Below, in pieces: positions 30,752 through 44,405 of a stretch of 64,000 nucleotides of DNA; the first letter of the stretch is position 1, and the number at the start of each line of letters is the position of its first letter. The notes below the pieces were generated by a model that was not told the origin of the DNA, searched no databases, and saw nothing but the letters and a program-made list of their open reading frames with translations. Source of the DNA: Chloroflexota bacterium (lineage in GTDB: Bacteria; Chloroflexota; Dehalococcoidia; Lucifugimonadales; UBA3495); the NCBI GenBank assembly GCA_028875055.1, contig JAPPGG010000023.1, positions 1,746-65,745 on the forward strand. Direction: 5' to 3'. The translations under genes were made by a program, and so were the position numbers.

Positions 30752-30805
30752 TCACTTCACCAATGTAACTTTTTGCCTGTCATGCAGAATTTTAGGAGGA
30801 GCAGT

Positions 30806-32083
30806 ATGCTGAAGATTGGGCACGAGGTTGTCCGTCCGGGCCGGAACCTGGGCGAGGCTGAAGTAACCATACCCATCCCCGAGGAATTGGAAACGGTTCC
30901 TGGTATCCCCATGACTTCGCGCGAAGTTGACTGGTACGCCCGCGAATATCCGCTGGAATCCATCAACATCACTGAGCGCGCTTCCCGCGACTGGGCTAAC
31001 ACCCTTCGCGACCAGCACGCCGAAATGCGCGAGATCCGGAAGGAGCACGAAAAGCTCAACCGGCCCTTGATCATGGCCTGCCGCATGACCGCCGATCTGG
31101 AGCCCACCGCGGAACCCACCGGCGAGGACATCAGCGAGCTGATCAAGACCAAGGCCCGTGAACTGGGCTTCGTCGAAGTCGGCATCACCGCCTTTGACCA
31201 TCGCTACACCTTCCAGAGCAAGAAGGGCAGCACGGTCTATTATCCCCATTTCGTCGCTCTTGCTTACGAGCAGGACTTCGAGCCCACCCAGACCATCCCC
31301 AGCGTTGACGCCGAGATCGTGCACTCCAGCACCTATCGGACCGAAGGCGCCGCGGCCCTGGAACTGGGTAACTACATCCGCAGCCTGGGCTACCACGCGC
31401 AGGTCATGGGCTCCGGCGACTCCGCCGGCCCGTACATCCCCATGCACGTCGCTGCTGGCACCGGTCAGCTGGGCGCATGCGGCTATCTGCTGACCCCCCA
31501 CGTCGGCTCCCGCTGCCGCCTGGTCGGTCTGACCACCGACGCCAACGTCAGCTATGACGAACCCGTGGACTACGGCATCCACGCTTTCTGCCAGGTGTGC
31601 CAGGTCTGCGTGAACCGCTGCCCCGGCCGCGCCCTCATGCGCGACAAGATCTGGTGGCGGGGAATTGAGAAGAACAAGCTCTACTTCAAGCGCTGCCGCC
31701 CCGTCATGGCCCGCTACCTGGGCTGCGGCATCTGCATGAAGGTCTGCCCCATCCAGAAGTATGGCCTGAAGAACGTCATGGACCACTATGCCGAGACCGG
31801 TCAGGTGCTGGGCAAGGGCACCCACGACCTGGAAGGCTACACCCTGGAAGGCAAGGGCTACTTCGGCCCCGGCGAAATGCCCGTCTTCGACGCCGCTTTC
31901 TTCGATATGCCCCACGGCGGCACCGACGAGCACGCTTTCGAGGTCTTCAAGCAGAGGGCCACGGCTGCCGGTGGCGAAGTCACCGAGGAAATGATGGCAG
32001 AACTGAAGGACGGGCTGGTCAAGTCCCTCTTCCAGGCCACCGACAACCTCGGCATGATGGACGAGGACGCCGACTACATCTAG
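30806..32083 (+). CDS. Reductive dehalogenase / epoxyqueuosine reductase superfamily cobalamin-[4Fe-4S] protein, no Tat signal
   Basis: AR.LG..EVGI; IPM.VAAG.G.LG..GYLLTP..G.R.RL..LTTD; FCQVCQVCVNRCP; C...GCGICMKVCP; AGGAGG RBS. Confidence 0.85.
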   Translation: MLKIGHEVVRPGRNLGEAEVTIPIPEELETVPGIPMTSREVDWYAREYPLESINITERASRDWANTLRDQHAEMREIRKEHEKLNRPLIMACRMTADLEPTAEPTGEDISELIKTKARELGFVEVGITAFDHRYTFQSKKGSTVYYPHFVALAYEQDFEPTQTIPSVDAEIVHSSTYRTEGAAALELGNYIRSLGYHAQVMGSGDSAGPYIPMHVAAGTGQLGACGYLLTPHVGSRCRLVGLTTDANVSYDEPVDYGIHAFCQVCQVCVNRCPGRALMRDKIWWRGIEKNKLYFKRCRPVMARYLGCGICMKVCPIQKYGLKNVMDHYAETGQVLGKGTHDLEGYTLEGKGYFGPGEMPVFDAAFFDMPHGGTDEHAFEVFKQRATAAGGEVTEEMMAELKDGLVKSLFQATDNLGMMDEDADYI

Positions 32084-32119
32084 TCCCTGTCCCCGGTCCA
32101 TTCCGGACCAGACCCGAAG

Positions 32120-32150
32120 AGGCCAGCATCCTTTCGATGCTGGCCTTTAC
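32120..32150 (+). terminator. Rho-independent terminator after the RdhA-like gene
   Basis: AGGCCAGCATC-CTTTC-GATGCTGGCCT-TTAC. Confidence 0.75.
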
Positions 32151-32307
32151 TTGTGCGCCCATTTACTGCCCCGCCCAGCTACTGACCCGATTTCTGATAC
32201 AGTCCGGCTACAGGAGCCACCGCCGGCGGTAGTCCCCCCGCGTCCGTAATCTGAAGGCGCTGAAAAATCTGATACCGCGAGAACAGAGCCAACCCCAGCC
32301 AGGCTGA

Positions 32308-35107
32308 CCGGCGGTACAACTACCCTGAAGTGATGGGGAGATAGTAGCCGTCAGTCCGGCAGAAGCCAGTATCCGGCATCCCGGGCCGCAATTGGGTTGC
32401 CTTGAACCAGCCAGTTCCAAATCCCGGCCGGCGCCCAACGCCGGCCAATGCCCAGGGCCCATCCCGCTGTTGCATCAGGTCAGTTGAAGCCCCTGGCACG
32501 GGCAGGCAAGGGTTCTGCCTGGGTTAGCAACCGGGCCCGTATTCTGTTCAAGGCCGGCGAGGGCTGGCTGGCGCCCAGGGTGGCTCAAGCGCTGGACGTG
32601 TCCCAGGGCACGGTGCTCCACGTCCAGCGGCGCTTCGCCGAGTGGAATTGGATGGGGCGCTGATGGACCGGCCACGTTACCACCGATGTGGAAGTAAGAT
32701 ACCAAAGCTTGGGAACGGTAGATAATGGTTTGCCTTAGTTGGAGAAGTCTGGTTGCTCTCTTATCGCTCTCTGTTCTGTCATTTCTTCTATCAGCCTGCG
32801 AAGGCGGTACCAGCATCCAGTTCGTTGAAATCAGCAGTGGGGAAAACCATACCTGCGCACTGCGCGACGACGGCACAGTCTCATGTTGGGGCCTGAACGA
32901 CTTTGGCCAGGCGTCGCCCCCTGCGGGTAAGCTCTTTGCCACTGTTGCCAGCGGTTCGTTGCATAGTTGCGGGATCACAAGAGATGGTTTCGTCAACTGC
33001 TGGGGTTCGGAGAACCTCGCGCCTGCGTATCCGGCGGAAGAGACGTTCGCGTCCATAGACGTGGGCTTTTTTAGCAGTTGCGGCATACGTGAGGACGGAG
33101 TGACATTTTGCTGGGGCGAGGTTTACGGCCATCCGGAAATGCTGGATGGTAACTACTCTTCTATCAGCAACGGCCCCTTTTTCCGGTGTGGACTACTTGT
33201 GAGCGGCGACCCAAGGTGTAGCGGTCTGGGTATTGACGGAAATCAGCTAACCCAGGGAGATTCAGTTCACGGAGAATTGACGCACATCAGCAGTGGATTG
33301 GCCCATGTTTGTGCGGTGAATGCGGAAGGAAGTCTGTTTTGTTAGGGCAATGATGAGTCCGGGCAGGCATCGCCCCCTCAAGGCAAGGAGTTTGTTTCGG
33401 TCAGCAGCGGTAGGGCCCACACCTGTTCGGTTCGGAAAGATAGCAGGGCGGTCTGCTGGGGGAGTAACGAGTTTGGTCAATCGTCGCCCCCTCAGGGGGA
33501 AGAGTTCTCATCAATCAGTAGCGGCGCAAACCACACATGCGGGCTTCTCACCGATGGCGAGATCATATGCTGGGGAAGCGACCTTCACGGGCAGTCGTCA
33601 CCCCACACGGAGATCGCCCCCCAGGCTGAAGTTGAGCAATCGTCGGTTACATTGCTGTGGCGCGTACCTTTTCCCGTCGAGGATGACTTGGCGTCGGCCC
33701 CGGTCGCCAGGGATGGCACCGTGTACGTAACCCAAAGAGACAACTCCCTGCACGCATTGGAGGCCCGAACCGGTCAGCTGAAGTGGAGCTATAAATCAGG
33801 TGGTTGGATTACCGCGTCGCCGGTCGTGGTTGAAGACGTCGTTTACGCGGGATCCTGGGATGGTTCCGTTTATGCCCTGAAAGCCGCAACAGGAGAGCAG
33901 ATTTGGAGACACAGGACCGAAGGCGAGGTCTCCGAGCCCCTGAAAGTCCTCGGAGGGTTCGTGTATTTGGTCGCGGATGATCAGGTCGTCGCATTGAATG
34001 CCCTTTCCGGCGAACTTGTCTGGGCCCAGAGACTGGATGGTCATGCCTCATTTTCTCCCTTATTGGATGGCCCAGTGGTATTCGTCGGTTCGTTAACGGG
34101 TGTTCTATACGCACTGGATGCCTCTACCGGGGACATACTCTGGCAACACAAGGCAAGTAGCGAGTCATACTCCATTTCCGCTGAAGGCGGCCAAGTTCTT
34201 GACCAGACCTTCTCGGAGCCTGCCGTGTCAAACGGGATCGTGTATCTGGTCACAGACAGCGGTACTGTTCGCGCTCTGGATTCAACCAATGGGGGAATGG
34301 TATGGGAGCACCAGATCTTACCCGGAGTTAGCCATCCGCCGGTCTTGGACGGTGACACTATTTACTTGGCAGGTCTATTTGAGGGCCCGCTCTACGCATT
34401 GGGCGCTCGTACCGGCGAACTGCTCTGGGAGAACGAAGAAGTGAGTGGGATTTTGCGCTTGGCCGCAAGTGAAGGACTGGTTTTCGCGTCCGGTCATATC
34501 GGCAGCCGAGGGCACGTATATGCCGTAGATGGCGGCACTGGTGAGGTGCGCTGGCGCTCCCCTGCCAGGAGCGCTCTCGACCCCTTCCTGGCCGACGGAA
34601 CGGTTTATGCCAGCTACGTTGATGGAACAGGAGAAAGAAATGTAACCGGGGTGTCTGCTCTGGATTCTGAAACCGGGGAAATCCTGTGGAGTTACCAGGC
34701 GAAAGTGGGTCTGGGGCAGCGCATGGCAGTGGCCGAGAATGTGGTTTACCTCACCCCCACTGAGAATTACCTGGACGGTCAGCTTGGCTACGTTGGCTGG
34801 TATCTTTATGCGCTTACCCACCCCTGATGTCTTACTGGCGGCGGCGGCGTGGCGCCTGGAGTTCCACTGCACCCCCCCAGGCCTGGCAGCTGGCTAAACG
34901 TGGCGAAGATCGAATTCAGCACGTTCTCCCGAAGTTGCCTCAGAAAGCGTGTCCCCGACGAGGATTCCCGATGCCGGAAAATTCATGCTTTGGAACACGA
35001 GAGAAACCAGGCTCAAGCCCGCATCAGCTGGCGCTTCGGCTTCCACGACGCTCGAACCATGCTCCATCGCCTCTATCCCATCATTTCCTGATTTGGTCGA
35101 GTACTGG
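32308..35107 (+). mobile_element. IS630-derived non-autonomous element carrying a passenger gene
   Basis: Transposase HTH fragment at 32448..~32700 (RARILFKA.EGW...AQALDVS..TV.HV.RRF; frameshifted LDGALMDRPR) and C-terminal fragment at ~34840..35089 (RLEFH.TP..GSWLNVAKIEFS...DAR..L.RLYP) flank the 32725..34827 gene. Confidence 0.75.
32725..34827 (+). pseudogene. Lipoprotein with 7 RCC1-like repeats + PQQ/BamB-like propeller, interrupted by in-frame TAG at 33343..33345
   Basis: Track ORFs 32725..33345 and 33652..34827 are in the same frame. The sequence between them encodes two more intact RCC1 repeats. The TAG sits at the W of a C-W-G motif (tgt tag ggc). Lipobox LLSAC. Confidence 0.85.
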
Positions 35108-35294
35108 CGGTACAACTAACCTGAAATGAGGGGGCGAAGATTGGCCGTTATGACGGCAGAAGCCAGTATCCGGTATCCCTGGCCGTAATTGGGTTGTCTT
35201 GAACCAGCCACTTCCAAATCCCGGCCGGCGCCCCGGCTCCGGCCAATGCCATGGGCACATACCTCCCTGGCATCAGTTCAGTTGAAGCCCCTGG
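35104..35294 (+). repeat. Second copy of the IS630 left end and 5' transposase codons (direct repeat of 32308..32496)
   Basis: About 190 bp, roughly 80% identical by eye (GCGGTACAACTA.CCTGAA...CAGAAGCCAGTATCCGG...CAAATCCCGGCCGGCGCC...CAGTTGAAGCCCCTGG). Confidence 0.85.
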
Positions 35295-36039
35295 TCCGTG
35301 AACGGTAGCCATAGAAGTTGTCCCCATCCCCGTCATGCTCCACGAACACGATGATGGACGAGTCGTCGCCCTGGCTCCACCTGGCCGTACCCGCGCATTC
35401 CACCCTTGAGGAGGTGCTGACGAAAACTCGCAGGTCATAGACCTTCAAAATGGCCACATCCTGCTCACGGCTCAACTCCATGCTCAGTTCCGCAACCGTA
35501 CTGCAGTTGGCGCCTCCCAGGACGTGACTCCGTAGAATAGAGTCTGCCCTCCCGGTGGTGTCCAGTTCCGCGAACGAGCCCAGCGGCGGTCGCTGCACGG
35601 CTGCGGGGTCCACCGGAGCGGCCGTCGGAACTTCCGCCTGCTGGATGATGACCGAAGGTGGCGCCGGGGTCGGATAGGGCGTATATGTCGGCTGCGGCGT
35701 GGGCGTGGCCGCCTCAGTGGGCGTGGGATAGGGAGTATAGGTCGGGTAGGGCGTCGCCGTCGGGTAGGGACTGGCCGTGGGCAATGGCGTACCCGTCGGG
35801 TATGGGGTGGAGGTCGGATAGGCCGTGGCCGTCGGGTATGGCGTATGGGTGGGCCAGGCAGTCGCCGTGGGGACCGCCGCCAGTTGATTGACTACTTCGG
35901 CCTGTACGGTGGCCTGTACATCCGGCAGCGGAGAGGCCGGCTCCGGTTCGGCGGCGCAGGCTATCGCCGCCCCGATCAAAGTCAGCGGAATCACAATCCG
36001 CAAAGCCCGGGCCAGTATCTTTACGTTAACTTTCAGCAT
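35278..36039 (-). CDS. Lipoprotein with PTxTPY hexapeptide stalk and small two-Cys C-terminal domain
   Basis: Lipobox AAIAC; about 11 PT(A/S/Y/G/H)TP(Y/L)-type repeats. Confidence 0.8.
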   Translation of the reverse strand: MLKVNVKILARALRIVIPLTLIGAAIACAAEPEPASPLPDVQATVQAEVVNQLAAVPTATAWPTHTPYPTATAYPTSTPYPTGTPLPTASPYPTATPYPTYTPYPTPTEAATPTPQPTYTPYPTPAPPSVIIQQAEVPTAAPVDPAAVQRPPLGSFAELDTTGRADSILRSHVLGGANCSTVAELSMELSREQDVAILKVYDLRVFVSTSSRVECAGTARWSQGDDSSIIVFVEHDGDGDNFYGYRSRTRGFN

Positions 36040-36244
36040 CTGAGAGCGTCCTCAACGGGTAGCATACTAGCAAGAAACTATAGCAGACCAGTCCACTTCT
36101 TACCTCGCAAACGGGCGCTGCCTTTTGGCCACTTTGGGGTAATGGCAGCAATTGATCCTCAGAATTGCCCGGATACTCCAATAATTCTTCAGTTCCAAGT
36201 GCCCCAATAACGTGAATCCTACAAATTAGGTGATTAACCACAGG

Positions 36245-36273
36245 TTGACAGGCACTGATAGTATTGATACTAT
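36245..36273 (+). promoter_or_regulatory. sigma70 promoter with overlapping operator palindrome
   Basis: TTGACA-N17-TACTAT; perfect inverted repeat ATAGTAT-TG-ATACTAT (36258..36273) covers the -10. Confidence 0.65.
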
Positions 36274-36340
36274 TACCTAGTAACAGGTTAACAGTACTAA
36301 GCACTATCGGCCAAATCGGAGAGAACGAAGGAGGAATACA

Positions 36341-36778
36341 ATGCCAACTGTAAGAGTCGACGATGAAGTTTACGAGTGGCTTCAGTCATTGGCGGTTCCG
36401 TTTCAGGATACGCCAAACTCTGTCCTGCGGCGGGTGGCAGGGCTAGATGAAACGCCTTTAACCCAAAAAGGAAATCTCTTGGACAAAACCATAAATGCAG
36501 ACGAGATTGGAGTTGAGGAAATAGTGCCTATTAGAGCAACTGGCAAAGAACTCAGTAAAATCTTTCAAATCGAAGGCGAGCAGAGCTTGTACAGTGACAC
36601 CGGAACCTTTTATGGAAACCTGACAAAGTTCCCAGGCGTTCTTTGGGATAGACACGGATATGTGAGATTCCTATCCGAGTCTGACTATAGAACGTCGCCT
36701 TACCTGCAGATAGGCAAAAGGTTAAATGTTCCCAATGGAGGAATAGCCTCCATCCCTGGGTACACTCGGGTCAGATAG
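36341..36778 (+). CDS. Hypothetical protein with SeqA-N-like (ribbon-helix-helix) N-terminus
   Basis: MPTVRVDDEVYEWLQSLAVPFQDTPNSVLRR resembles E. coli SeqA MKTIEVDDELY...ESASDILRR; low GC; GGAGG RBS. Confidence 0.7.
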   Translation: MPTVRVDDEVYEWLQSLAVPFQDTPNSVLRRVAGLDETPLTQKGNLLDKTINADEIGVEEIVPIRATGKELSKIFQIEGEQSLYSDTGTFYGNLTKFPGVLWDRHGYVRFLSESDYRTSPYLQIGKRLNVPNGGIASIPGYTRVR

Positions 36779-36854
36779 TTCGTAGCATACAAAAGCCTCT
36801 TGGTATCACACTATTGGGTGGCCCCCTGAGCAGCCGAAGCCATGTTACCGATTC

Positions 36855-36883
36855 TTGACCCGCGCCCTTGCTGCGGGTAGGAT
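36855..36883 (+). promoter_or_regulatory. Putative sigma70 promoter
   Basis: TTGACC-N17-TAGGAT upstream of the hydrolase gene. Confidence 0.45.
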
Positions 36884-36921
36884 TGTGCTGACAATCAGGC
36901 AAGCTTGGAGGCTACGCAAAC

Positions 36922-37701
36922 ATGCCCAATTACACCGAGGAATTCGTTGAGGTTGGCGGCTCAAAAGTTCAGCTGCGCAAGGGAGGCTCCGGCGATCCCC
37001 TGCTGGTGCTGCACGGAGCTGGCGGCAGCGGCGGCTGGCTGCGCTACCTCGACGCCCTGGCCGAACGGTTCACTGTTTATCTGCCTTCCCATCCCGGGTA
37101 CGACGAATCAGAGCGGCCCGAGTGGATGGAAAACATGCACGATATGGCCTGCTTCTACAACTGGTTCGTCGAGAGCCAGGGCATCCAGGGTTGCCGGGCC
37201 ATGGGATTTTCCATGGGCGGCTGGCTGGCCTCGGAAATGGTGGCCGCCGCCGGACCCGTCTTCAGCAAGTTGATGCTCGTGGCGCCGGTGGGCATCAAGC
37301 CCAATGAGGGCGAGATTGCCGATGTCTTCATCATAACCCCGGCCCAGGTTATCGAGTTATTGTTCCACGACCCGTCCCAGGCCCCCGAGTACGACCAGGT
37401 TTTTGGCCAGGCTCCCACCCCCGAGCAGATGGCCATATTGGAGCGCAATCGCGAAATGTCGGTGCGCATCTGCTGGAAGCCCTATATGCACAGCCTCAGC
37501 CTCGCCGACCGGCTTGCCCGCGTCAACATCCCCACCCGCATCCTCTGGGGCCGGGACGACCGGCTGGCGCCCGTCGAATGCGGCTCCCTGTACCAGCAGG
37601 CCATTCCCGGCTCCGAGCTGGTAGTAATCGAAAACTGCGGCCACCTGCCCCAGATGGAAAAGCCCGACGAGTTCCTGCAGGCGGCCAATTCGTTCCTTTA
37701 A
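36922..37701 (+). CDS. Alpha/beta hydrolase
   Basis: LHGAGG, GFSMGG nucleophile elbow, WGRDD, CGHLPQME. Confidence 0.92.
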   Translation: MPNYTEEFVEVGGSKVQLRKGGSGDPLLVLHGAGGSGGWLRYLDALAERFTVYLPSHPGYDESERPEWMENMHDMACFYNWFVESQGIQGCRAMGFSMGGWLASEMVAAAGPVFSKLMLVAPVGIKPNEGEIADVFIITPAQVIELLFHDPSQAPEYDQVFGQAPTPEQMAILERNREMSVRICWKPYMHSLSLADRLARVNIPTRILWGRDDRLAPVECGSLYQQAIPGSELVVIENCGHLPQMEKPDEFLQAANSFL

Positions 37702-43025: not shown

Positions 43026-44405
43026 TTGGAATACCTGAAAGCCGCTCCCCGCCGTATGCTCCAGAATTGCCCTCCCAAAGCACTATTTACCCTAGGCTTG
43101 ATCCTTCTGGCCACGTTCCTTATGGCCGCCTGCGACTCGACACCCACTCCGGCGCCGGTCAGTCCTCCAACCCAGGCGCCGGCCCCCACGCCCGACATCC
43201 AGGCCACCATAGACGCGGCGGTGGCCGCTGCCATTGACGTCCAGGCAACAGCCTCGGCGGAATTCTCCGCTGAAGAACCGGCCGAGGAGGCCACTGAAGA
43301 ATCATCCGAGGAAGCCACCGGGGAAACCACCGGGGAAGCCACCGAGGAGCCTGCAGAAGAAGAGCCGGTGGAAGAGCCCACGGCTGCCCCCGAACCCACC
43401 CACACGCCGCAGCCCACGCCCACTCCGCGTCCGACGGTGACGCCCGTGCCCACGGCTACCCCCGCTCCTACGGCCACGCCGCAACCCACGGCTACGCCCA
43501 TACCGGCGCCTACCGCTACTCCCCTGCCCACGGCGGCGCCCACCCGGGTGCCTCCTACGCCCGTACCCACGCCGGCTCCCGTCACCATAACCAAGATTGA
43601 CGCCAACGGCGCCCACACTTGCGCCCTCTTCTCCGACGGTTCGGTACGGTGCTGGGGAAGCGACGTTAACCAGCAGCTGAGCGTGCCCATCGGCGTTACC
43701 TTCGCCGACGTAAGCGCGGGAGGCTCCTTCACCTGCGGCATCCAGGCCGACCCGGAACGGGAAGGCGCGGCCTTCTGCTGGGGCAAGGACCTGCTGGGGA
43801 CTCTGCAGGTTGACCGCAGCGCGCGCCTCAAGTCCATCAGCGCCGGCCGCCAGCACGTCTGCGGGGTAATGATGGACGACACCGTCGCCTGCTGGGGCAG
43901 CAACGAACGCAGCCAGACCGACGCCCCCGAAAGGCAGACCTTCGTCTCCGTAACCGCCGGTGGCTCCCATACCTGCGCTCTCCGAGACGATGGAACGGTG
44001 AATTGCTGGGGCGCCAACAATTACGGACAGCGGGACTATCCTGCCGGCGAAGTGTTTACGAAGATTGACGCCGGTGACGACCACACCTGTGGCCTGCGGC
44101 CGAACGGGACCGTGGCCTGCTGGGGCAACAACCTGTGGGAACCGCCTCAGATTGAGGGCATAGTGGACATCGGGTCCGGGGATGAATTTACCTGCGCGGT
44201 GGGCCACGACTCCAGCGCCTATTGCTGGGGACGCGACTCCGAACGGGACCTGGAACCGCCCGACCGGCGCGGGTTCGAGATTATCAGCAGCGGCGACCAG
44301 CACACCTGTGCCGTCCGGTTCGACGGGGTGGTGGTCTGCTGGGGCGGCAACCGCTACCTGGGGGCCACCAATCCCCCCGACGACCTGGAACATTCCCGCT
44401 ACTAG
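43026..44405 (+). CDS. Lipoprotein with acidic and Pro/Thr stalk plus 7 RCC1-like repeats
   Basis: Lipobox FLMAAC; seven (S/A)G..HTC.L..DG.V.CWG repeats. Start may be 43056. Confidence 0.88.
   Translation: MEYLKAAPRRMLQNCPPKALFTLGLILLATFLMAACDSTPTPAPVSPPTQAPAPTPDIQATIDAAVAAAIDVQATASAEFSAEEPAEEATEESSEEATGETTGEATEEPAEEEPVEEPTAAPEPTHTPQPTPTPRPTVTPVPTATPAPTATPQPTATPIPAPTATPLPTAAPTRVPPTPVPTPAPVTITKIDANGAHTCALFSDGSVRCWGSDVNQQLSVPIGVTFADVSAGGSFTCGIQADPEREGAAFCWGKDLLGTLQVDRSARLKSISAGRQHVCGVMMDDTVACWGSNERSQTDAPERQTFVSVTAGGSHTCALRDDGTVNCWGANNYGQRDYPAGEVFTKIDAGDDHTCGLRPNGTVACWGNNLWEPPQIEGIVDIGSGDEFTCAVGHDSSAYCWGRDSERDLEPPDRRGFEIISSGDQHTCAVRFDGVVVCWGGNRYLGATNPPDDLEHSRY

Follow-up and report, generated by a model that had tools for sequence, protein, structure and literature searches.

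The window, a 64,000-nucleotide stretch from a Chloroflexota bacterium that was analyzed here, contains an intergenic spacer in which a lipoprotein gene is enclosed by two fragments of an IS630-family element. On the left, a gene occupies positions 30773 to 32083. Beyond its terminator lie a spacer segment, X (32157 to 32306), the left copy of a 190-bp direct repeat (DR-L; 32307 to 32496), the left IS630 arm (32481 to 32687, plus strand) and a leader of 37 nucleotides that runs from the end of IS homology, as set by alignment and nhmmer, to the ATG of the cargo gene (32688 to 32724, plus strand). The cargo gene itself (32725 to 34827, plus strand; 700 codons, 2.1 kb) stops 2 nucleotides before the right IS630 arm (34830 to 35107, plus strand), at the end of which the right copy of the repeat begins (DR-R; 35103 to 35294). 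Finally, a native gene on the minus strand (35278 to 36039) encodes a Pro/Thr-rich protein of 253 amino acids without a Pfam match, and its stop and last codons lie within DR-R. In IS coordinates, the layout is X-DR-[IS nt 145 to 352-cargo-IS nt 940 to end]-DR-native gene, with all parts of the unit collinear and in one orientation.

Intact IS630-type relatives measure ~1.23 kb and end in CTAGTAC...GTACTAG. With an nhmmer profile built from five intact family members, the left arm was matched to IS nt 145 to 352 (E value, 6e-43); it encodes the helix-turn-helix (HTH) part of the transposase (~aa 16 to 85), with Pfam matches to HTH_23 and HTH_29, and is 80% identical (blastn) to the IS of relative G033. 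The right arm (IS nt 940 to 1227) holds the transposase C terminus and the right inverted repeat (IR), and its nhmmer match extends from 34830 to 35105 (IS nt 940 to 1225; E value, 8e-60). The catalytic center in between (IS nt 353 to 939), including two catalytic Asp residues, is missing, and the cargo gene is found in its place; such an ORF-tight substitution of a transposase core is unusual. With only the HTH part and the last ~90 aa remaining, the transposase does not retain the DDE triad (DD34-35E type) characteristic of the IS630 family. In addition, the left arm has lost 1 nt near 32645 and acquired an early stop codon (32661 to 32663), and the right arm carries a 12-nt deletion and a 2-nt insertion (+2 frameshift) in a C-run near 34873 to 34879. 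Also in the right arm, the third catalytic Glu has been replaced by Lys (NVAKIE; codon 34906 to 34908); since this codon is still GAG (Glu) in a related genome, G010, the replacement is a late point mutation, and we rejected it as an adaptive or diagnostic feature.

Both arms are 77 to 80% identical to the type found in G033, G015 and G014, and they represent complementary, non-overlapping parts from the same IS630 sub-lineage. No inner IS ends were found between them, as a composite transposon, made of two IS copies with ends of their own, would have. An earlier note on this DNA had described a transposase HTH fragment reaching to ~32700, a lower-GC lipoprotein gene with RCC1 and PQQ repeats replacing the transposase center, a C-terminal fragment with the Glu-to-Lys change, and a right end, all in order and in one orientation, and each of these observations was confirmed. 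Descent of the arms from unrelated IS630 copies, which the note had named as fatal to its reading, is likewise not what we found. The intact parent IS630 that it expected did not turn up, however, with nothing closer than ~80% identity among 60 relatives.

Since the genome is a metagenome-assembled genome (MAG) from a sponge, and since the arms recruit IS630 relatives from foreign organisms in high depth, we considered whether IS reads of different organisms had been joined to the lipoprotein gene during assembly. This can be set aside with near certainty: a single 7.1-kb Logan contig of uniform depth (50) spans 31855 to 35700 with zero differences, and the junctions are common to three independent assemblies, among them a MAG from another study with another host label and a JGI contig, as well as to Logan contigs of other sponge samples.

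At the right end of the unit, the IR lies at 35093 to 35107 (..TTGGTCGAGTACTGG) and occurs once within the window (CCAGTACTCGACCAA). The IS copies of the community all stop at 35105, followed by AG, which completes CTAG at 35107. The left end of the family, in intact relatives, consists of a conserved (TA)CTAGTAC..GTCAA and a leader of ~100 nt, and for this part of the IS (nt 1 to 144, including the left IR) no match was obtained in 31000 to 37000 (nhmmer --max, E ≤ 10), nor was a left IR seen anywhere in the window. The feature at 32308 that the earlier note took for an IS left end belongs in fact to the direct repeat. In local alignments, fourteen IS termini (thirteen from relatives and the window's own right end, reverse complemented) scored no higher against 32287 to 32480 than against shuffled sequences (P ≥ 0.07), and with no match to either a terminus or the profile, we rejected the ideas that the repeat is an IS left end that has diverged or that it belongs to a second, truncated copy of the IS. 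An IS origin is also contradicted by the 3' part of the repeat: approximately the last 45 nt of DR-R are native, covering the 3' end of the minus-strand gene (..RGFN*) and the sequence downstream of it, and their ortholog is found in relative G008, where the site is empty. In other words, where the left IS end should be, the 190 bp of chromosome located just right of the IS right end occur a second time.

The two copies of the repeat are 84% identical in the present genome (G000) and merely 74% alike in G010, and they were therefore not identical recently; DR-R of the present genome looks partly converted. The last 16 nt of DR-L (CAGTTGAAGCCCCTGG) are also where the homology to the IS starts. 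A likeness of ATAGTAGCC-GTCAG, at 32340, to the IR consensus needs a gap and is not significant. We also rejected att repeats of an integrative element, since no integrase is present and the repeat is native sequence, and Rfam detected no structured RNA in the repeat. At the right junction, the sequence is GTAC|TG|G, and at the X-DR-L boundary it is C-TG-G, without a left junction to pair with. While CTAG bounds all family copies, TG rather than TA occupies the target in all four repeat copies, and neither a TA-flanked pair of ends nor the IR pair typical of the IS630 family could be defined. The definition of terminal IRs and a TA duplication, which the earlier note had proposed as a check, ended at the right IR.

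The same structure is present in the orthologous intergenic spacer of a congeneric sponge MAG, G010 (RHO2_bin_36), at 92.7% identity over 4 kb. A third copy, more eroded, occupies the same spacer in a JGI metagenome contig, L075. X is confined to these three cassette-bearing genomes (94% conserved in G010 and recognizable in L075), and homology with the empty-site relatives ends at 32145 to 32162. In six congeners (G008, G001, G004, G009, G011, and G002), the site is empty, with arms and cargo absent together. Empty sites were among the features that the earlier note had proposed to look for, and cargo without arms at this locus, which would have spoken against it, was not seen. The flanks of L075 are 94 to 98.6% identical to those of G004, which itself is empty; this empty state is presumably ancestral. 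In L075, the unit begins with the non-IS spacer X, and its right junction lies within the C-terminal arm, not at the IS end, with G004's own spacer next.

The arms are 87 to 91% identical between the present genome and G010, and their lesions differ. The cargo frame, on the other hand, is intact in both G010 and L075, with a dN/dS of 0.24 to 0.27. Cargo dS values (0.08 between G000 and G010; 0.26 between G000 and L075) are below most flank-gene values (0.16 to 0.31 between G000 and G010; 0.32 to 0.85 between G000 and G004), in a comparison of five flank genes of which one is equally low. The genome itself, 60 relatives, the GTDB species representatives and one metagenome scan yielded no copy elsewhere, with this or any other cargo; the earlier note had proposed to look for such copies. 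IS630 fragments are common in the present genome (contigs C4, C49, and C68), and contigs C39, C67, and C68 break inside IS630; since MAGs under-assemble IS copies in this way, complete copies could exist unassembled.

Having one transposon end and occupying a single chromosomal gap shared by the three carriers, the unit looks like a fixed relic. We therefore consider it probable that this is an immobilized IS630-with-cargo relic in one spacer, exchanged among congeners by recombination, and not a working mobile cassette. A currently mobile, two-ended, non-autonomous IS630 cassette, resembling a mobile insertion cassette (MIC) and spreading RCC1 proteins by transposition with the help of an intact IS630 acting in trans, was the reading of the earlier note, and it is very improbable. 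It would agree with arms from one IS lineage in correct order and orientation, with IS630 relatives that have similar IRs in the same genome and abundantly in the sponge community, and with the occurrence of the unit in two different genomic backgrounds. Against this stand the missing left IR and IS nt 1 to 144, the location of three of three copies in one spacer, the L075 unit that starts with X and ends inside an arm, and the lack of further copies in all collections searched. Because only one IR is left, an IS630 transposase cannot cut the unit out, which makes mobilization in trans impossible for the present structure, and nothing indicates that it occurred in the past. Of the proposed spread among symbionts, the part that stands is that the unit was moved or exchanged between congeneric sponge symbionts, as L075 in its G004-like background attests; the presence of all copies in one spacer speaks against the rest.

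An ancestral version of it, in which a hollowed IS with cargo and both IRs transposed into a CTAG-like X|DR site and lost its left end later, is a possibility to which we give limited but real weight. It would explain why the well-preserved right IR adjoins ..GTAC|TG|G, why the X-DR-L junction (..C TG G..) resembles an unfilled target when CTAG bounds all family copies, and why the cargo is tightly limited to an ORF, as fits a compact element; furthermore, one composite Tn630 has been published (PMC11544213). However, a complete copy was not found, the target carries TG instead of TA in all four repeat copies, and the cargo may equally have replaced the center of a resident, inserted IS. Somewhat more doubtful still is the wider proposition that this was, before the left end disappeared, a genuine IS630-derived, transposase-less element whose catalytic core had given way almost codon-exactly to the double-propeller gene, that it brought this gene into a genus of sponge Chloroflexota by transposing to a CTAG-like site, and that two-ended copies may still circulate in sponge microbiomes. 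If such an element did exist, IS630 would act as a carrier of repeat-protein ("eukaryote-like") genes in symbionts. We deem it unlikely, finally, that two separate IS630 copies flanked the gene in a composite-like arrangement and that inner deletions later cost the left copy its 3' part and the right copy its 5' part. The fragments mentioned above show IS630 to be common in this genome, and arms supplied by two copies from the same lineage could not be told apart from those of one copy, but this scenario requires two deletions, independent of each other, with one ending 37 nt upstream of the ATG and the other 2 nt downstream of the stop codon, and exactly complementary survivors (nt 145 to 352 and 940 to end). 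Additionally, the gene is not resident, given the empty spacer in relatives, and the missing left IR is left unexplained.

For the relic that we favor, the left junction probably arose by illegitimate recombination in the 16-nt stretch shared by DR-L and the left arm, in which native and IS sequences are alike at 10 of 16 positions. Either an "empty" allele took part in a homology-facilitated illegitimate exchange, or an unequal exchange occurred and the complete copy was lost afterwards; cargo capture, arrival at the site and loss of the left end may have taken place in any order. Since then, the unit would have persisted in one intergenic spacer and would have been passed between congeneric sponge Chloroflexota by recombination, with selection presumably maintaining the cargo as the IS arms decay. 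Some observations count against this relic. Random illegitimate capture does not account for the tight fit of the arms around the ORF, and next to the right IS end lies a CTGG/CTAG-like site of which X-DR-L resembles the unoccupied version. Because of that site, transposition of a complete element to this position, possibly already with cargo, is still conceivable. Read as a relic, the locus provides a dated three-genome series, from an IS with cargo via the loss of one end to the erosion of arms around a cargo under selection. Its junctions also provide evidence that a locus of this kind is exchanged among uncultivated sponge symbionts by recombination, not transposition. For annotation, it shows that a gene lying between collinear transposase pieces should be called a mobile cassette only once both ends have been demonstrated.

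Among known systems, MICs, such as MIC231, an IS231 derivative of the Bacillus cereus group, come close: IS-derived flanks, the lack of a functional transposase, a passenger unrelated to transposition and, in principle, dependence on a transposase in trans are shared. The MIC, a class defined previously (PMC3129680), has both parental IRs, target duplications and several copies, whereas the present unit has the right IR only, no definable target site duplication and a single locus in its own genome, which is the same spacer in G010 and L075. Unlike a MIC, it also keeps sizeable N- and C-terminal coding fragments of the transposase. In transporter IS elements (tIS), passenger genes accompany an intact transposase (PMC3129680); here, too, the passenger lies inside the IS boundaries, but instead of being an extra, it replaces the catalytic core. 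Passenger-carrying IS630 elements have rarely been described, and Tn630-NC1 of Nitrosomonas communis was presented as the first composite transposon of the IS630 type (PMC11544213). Similarly degenerate and inactive, and also consisting of IS630-family sequences around genes without a role in transposition, Tn630-NC1 differs in having four cargo genes and two complete IS630 copies, each with its own pair of IRs, in contrast to the complementary pieces of one IS and the single ORF seen here. The junctions themselves are reminiscent of homology-facilitated illegitimate recombination (HFIR) and of partial-IS "scars": L075 is of host type up to the spacer on the left and has an illegitimate junction inside the right IS arm, and the DR-L|IS junction falls in a patch of partial identity. 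Experimental demonstrations of HFIR come from a few competent species and from conjugation in E. coli (PMC3240628; PMC3129680); in these uncultivated symbionts, we infer it from junction anatomy alone.

The cargo gene has a GC content of 53 to 59%, compared to 60 to 69% for its flanks, and no sigma-70-like promoter was detected in 31900 to 36200. The context of one distant cargo homologue that was inspected (L076) contained no IS630 sequence. In the present genome, codon 207 of the cargo frame is an in-frame TAG (33343 to 33345, plus strand), turning a CWG motif into C*G. Both relatives have TGG (Trp) at this position, on the basis of which we rejected an alternative genetic code for TAG; the nonsense codon was probably just acquired.

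The encoded protein has a signal peptide with a lipobox (LLSAC; Cys24), followed by an RCC1-repeat propeller (~aa 30 to 290; RCC1_2, 2e-24) and an eight-bladed PQQ/BamB-like propeller (~aa 310 to 700; PQQ_2, 6e-56), i.e., every feature by which double-propeller lipoproteins are recognized. Approximately eight homologues (P0002 to P0009) share this architecture and the same C terminus at 46 to 54% identity. In the literature collection searched, there was almost nothing on RCC1 proteins in sponge symbionts. The host, a Chloroflexota bacterium, presumably lacks BAM machinery, in which case a BamB role would be ruled out. An AlphaFold2 model (pLDDT 72) was matched by Foldseek to BamB (TM score, ~0.7) and YxaL, and the Pfam matches and, as in BamB, the lipoprotein nature point in the same direction; unlike those propellers, the cargo is predicted to be a two-propeller fusion, RCC1 followed by PQQ. 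Most likely, it serves as a surface-anchored double beta-propeller scaffold.

The RCC1_2 (2e-24) and PQQ_2 (6e-56) Pfam matches of the ORF listing fall in a single frame at 32725-34827, broken by a TAG at 33343, with a GC content of 53-59% versus 60-69% outside. The 2142-bp segment that carries this frame stands in place of nt 353 to 939 of an intact IS630 relative (IS nt), beginning 37 nt before the ATG and stopping 2 nt past the TGA; since homologues stop at the same ...GWYLYAL..P position, we consider the cargo ORF complete. It starts with a lipoprotein signal (..LLSAC), and AF2 models it as an all-beta protein (pLDDT 72) in which a disordered linker (residues 293-308) joins two propellers, the C-terminal one resembling BamB (TM 0.63-0.73) and YxaL. 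The RCC1+PQQ architecture is common to about eight proteins (46-54% identity). The most that can be said is that the product is predicted to be a surface-anchored binding scaffold; a role in host interaction is conjecture. A second RCC1-repeat coding region in the window (43587-44396) shows 33-34% identity (tblastn) to the RCC1 part of the cargo.

The gene is flanked by a 71-aa HTH_23/HTH_29 fragment (32448-32663; ORF listing and Pfam) and, on the right, by an 80-aa ORF (34849-35091) bearing the IS630 'SWLN..E' tail. A genome of the same family, G033, has a 1229-bp IS (TA-CTAGTACTCGGTCAA...TTGACCGACTACTAG-TA), its transposase in two frames, in 11 near-identical copies, and full-length relatives occur in G015, G014, G027 and G030. 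A profile built from these five IS, run with all filters off on 31000-37000, gave exactly two matches: IS nt 145-352 at 32481-32687 (the left arm; E = 6e-43) and IS nt 940-1225 at 34830-35105 (the right arm; E = 8e-60). The same sub-lineage is nearest to both arms (77-80% identity). In G033-type copies (L018 1339-2567) and relatives, the two frames meet at CTGAAAAAAAC, and in the lineage found on contigs C39 and C67 at TTGAAAAAAAC; the two-frame arrangement of the G033-type transposase suggests programmed frameshifting or slippage. All copies are bounded by CTAG, in agreement with the known CTAG/TA target of IS630.

The left terminus and leader of the family are conserved across genera, as well as in three further copies of this MAG (on C39, C67 and C4). 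In the window, pattern searches matched the right terminal inverted repeat (IR) only; within 31000-37000, the profile found no match to IS nt 1-144, and local alignments of fourteen family termini with 32287-32480 and 35101-35280 were no better than those with shuffles. What the earlier note had taken for the IS left end at 32308 is instead the start of a direct repeat, with copies at 32307-32496 (DR-L) and 35103-35294 (DR-R) that are 84% identical; the gene-bearing IS630 of that note stands as regards the HTH fragment, the low-GC gene, the C-terminal fragment and the right end, but not the left. DR-R starts at the IS right end (..GAGTAC/TG/G CGGTACAAC..) and reaches the stop and last codons of a gene on the minus strand (35278-36039). 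The final ~45 nt of DR-R recur at the orthologous position in the insert-free congener G008, which marks at least this part as native chromosomal sequence. DR-L closes with the same 16 nt as DR-R (CAGTTGAAGCCCCTGG), and IS homology starts there; over these 16 nt, native sequence and IS consensus share 10 positions, as is typical of an illegitimate-recombination junction. The whole reads X (the left spacer)-DR-[IS145-352-cargo-IS940-end]-DR-gene.

The left-flank gene is present in 16/16 congeners, six of which (G008, G001, G004, G009, G011 and G002) have an empty site, with the left gene followed by a variable spacer of 76-377 bp and then the right-flank gene. The close congener G010, 'Chloroflexota bacterium RHO2_bin_36', has the entire structure in the same location, with 92.7% identity across 4 kb. 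With this identification, and with the window sequence present in several sponge metagenome runs, the host is a sponge-associated Chloroflexota, as had been guessed; the window's contig (C73) belongs to a MAG of 3.75 Mb in 75 contigs (G000). Between G000 and G010, the cargo is 96.7% identical without indels, the arms 87-91%, DR-L 89.5% and DR-R 71%. G010 still has the Glu in its C-arm (NMAEIE), without the +2 frameshift, but shows indels of its own; arm decay is independent in G000 and G010. In a four-way repeat alignment, DR-R of G010 stands apart (70-74% identity to the remaining three), and the middle of the G000 DR-R resembles the left copies; hence, the two repeat copies have not been identical recently, and the G000 DR-R was probably partly converted. 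A low-GC (~45%) block of ~700 bp at 36040-36847, adjoining the cassette and containing a 145-aa ORF (36341-36778) without a Pfam match, forms a second presence/absence polymorphism: found in G000 and apparently also in G008, it is missing from G010, G001, G004, G009 and G011, whose alignments skip from ~35925 or 36146 to 36848.

A JGI metagenome contig (Ga0131746_103915; L075) encodes an intact 700-aa cargo (88% aa identity). On its left lie X, two DR-L remnants and part of the HTH arm; on its right, the C-arm is cut down to ~50 nt and directly abuts a ~300-bp spacer and gene end, which match those of G004, itself empty, at 96-98.6% identity. Since the DR-L pieces have their native counterpart in the G000/G010/G008 locus type, that lineage is the most likely place of origin of the cassette, which would later have entered a G004-like genome. 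Host-type sequence up to the terminator on the left and an illegitimate junction on the right are what homology-facilitated illegitimate recombination (as defined in PMC3240628), and not transposition, would be expected to leave. The ~300-bp spacer (GATCAGGCAGGCGTCCGC...; G004 locus L055 2522-2841, L075 2690-3010), 96% conserved and absent from the spacers of other congeners, could be a small element or RNA.

Cargo dN/dS was 0.25 (G000-G010), 0.24 (G000-L075) and 0.27 (G010-L075), even over both propellers. No relaxed selection was visible along the G000 branch, suggesting that the TAG at 33343 is recent, although it was read from contigs only and might be an assembly error. Cargo dS was 0.079 for G000-G010 and 0.26 for G000-L075, against 0.16-0.31 for three G000-G010 flank genes (the fourth, the left gene, being 99% identical) and 0.32-0.85 for five G000-G004 genes. 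The cassette thus sits at the bottom of the local range or below it, which suggests, short of proof, that lateral exchange took place after speciation, in a neighbourhood that is mosaic in general. The RdhA-like left gene (30773-32083), 99% identical between G000 and G010:C414 where right-side genes have dS 0.16-0.31, has a low dS in all pairs (0.24-0.32), suggesting that a tract here recombined recently, that codon usage is under strong selection, or both.

As to origin, an IS630 copy would have inserted at a CTAG-like site on the X/DR boundary, with the cargo already aboard or gained later, and a later exchange would have joined the DR end to IS nt 145, duplicating DR and deleting the left IR. 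The partner in that exchange could have been an insert-free allele, in which case the homologous left flank would have served as anchor and resolution would have taken place in the 16-nt patch; this variant would also account for the strong divergence of DR-L and DR-R. Alternatively, the exchange could have been an unequal one between sisters, with the complete copy lost afterwards. Having lost its left IR, the unit would have been passed on by inheritance or recombination only. The ORF-tight capture (margins of 37 nt and 2 nt) finds no explanation in this scheme.

Searches of the own genome found only two repeat copies and one cargo; among 60 relatives, the cassette occurred in G010 only; GTDB representatives and one JGI metagenome scan gave distant cargo homologues only; and among 5.8 billion proteins, P0002 was the sole close relative. 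In other sponge runs, intact IS630 copies of other organisms were numerous; each ended at 35105 and continued with the AG that completes CTAG at 35107, and no alternative context for the cargo junctions was seen there. Of the gene-carrying vehicle proposed in the earlier note, the IS-derived passenger cassette survives, but not a functioning vehicle. We regard the locus as such a cassette persisting in scar form; it adds a new and well-documented case to a kind already known. Passenger-carrying IS630 elements have rarely been published (PMC11544213).

A transposase may be available in the own MAG, where another IS630 lineage lies at the ends of C39, C67 and C68, but it would have only one end to find at the cassette. 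A 100-nt IS630 relic (C49:77880-77981; L099 5381-5482; IS nt 945-1046) starts within 5 nt of the right-arm start in the window and lies ~520 bp upstream of another RCC1-repeat gene (720 aa; region C49:75199-77361); IS630 relics may be associated with RCC1 genes in this genome, or these two cases may equally be chance. The second lineage has the IR CTAGTACTCAGTCAAACTTG and an A7 frameshift site. Because contigs break inside it (C39:1984-2668, C67:2-661, C68:213645-213992 and C4:23338-23842), the real genome probably has several intact copies; on C4, its left 500 bp are fused to unrelated DNA.
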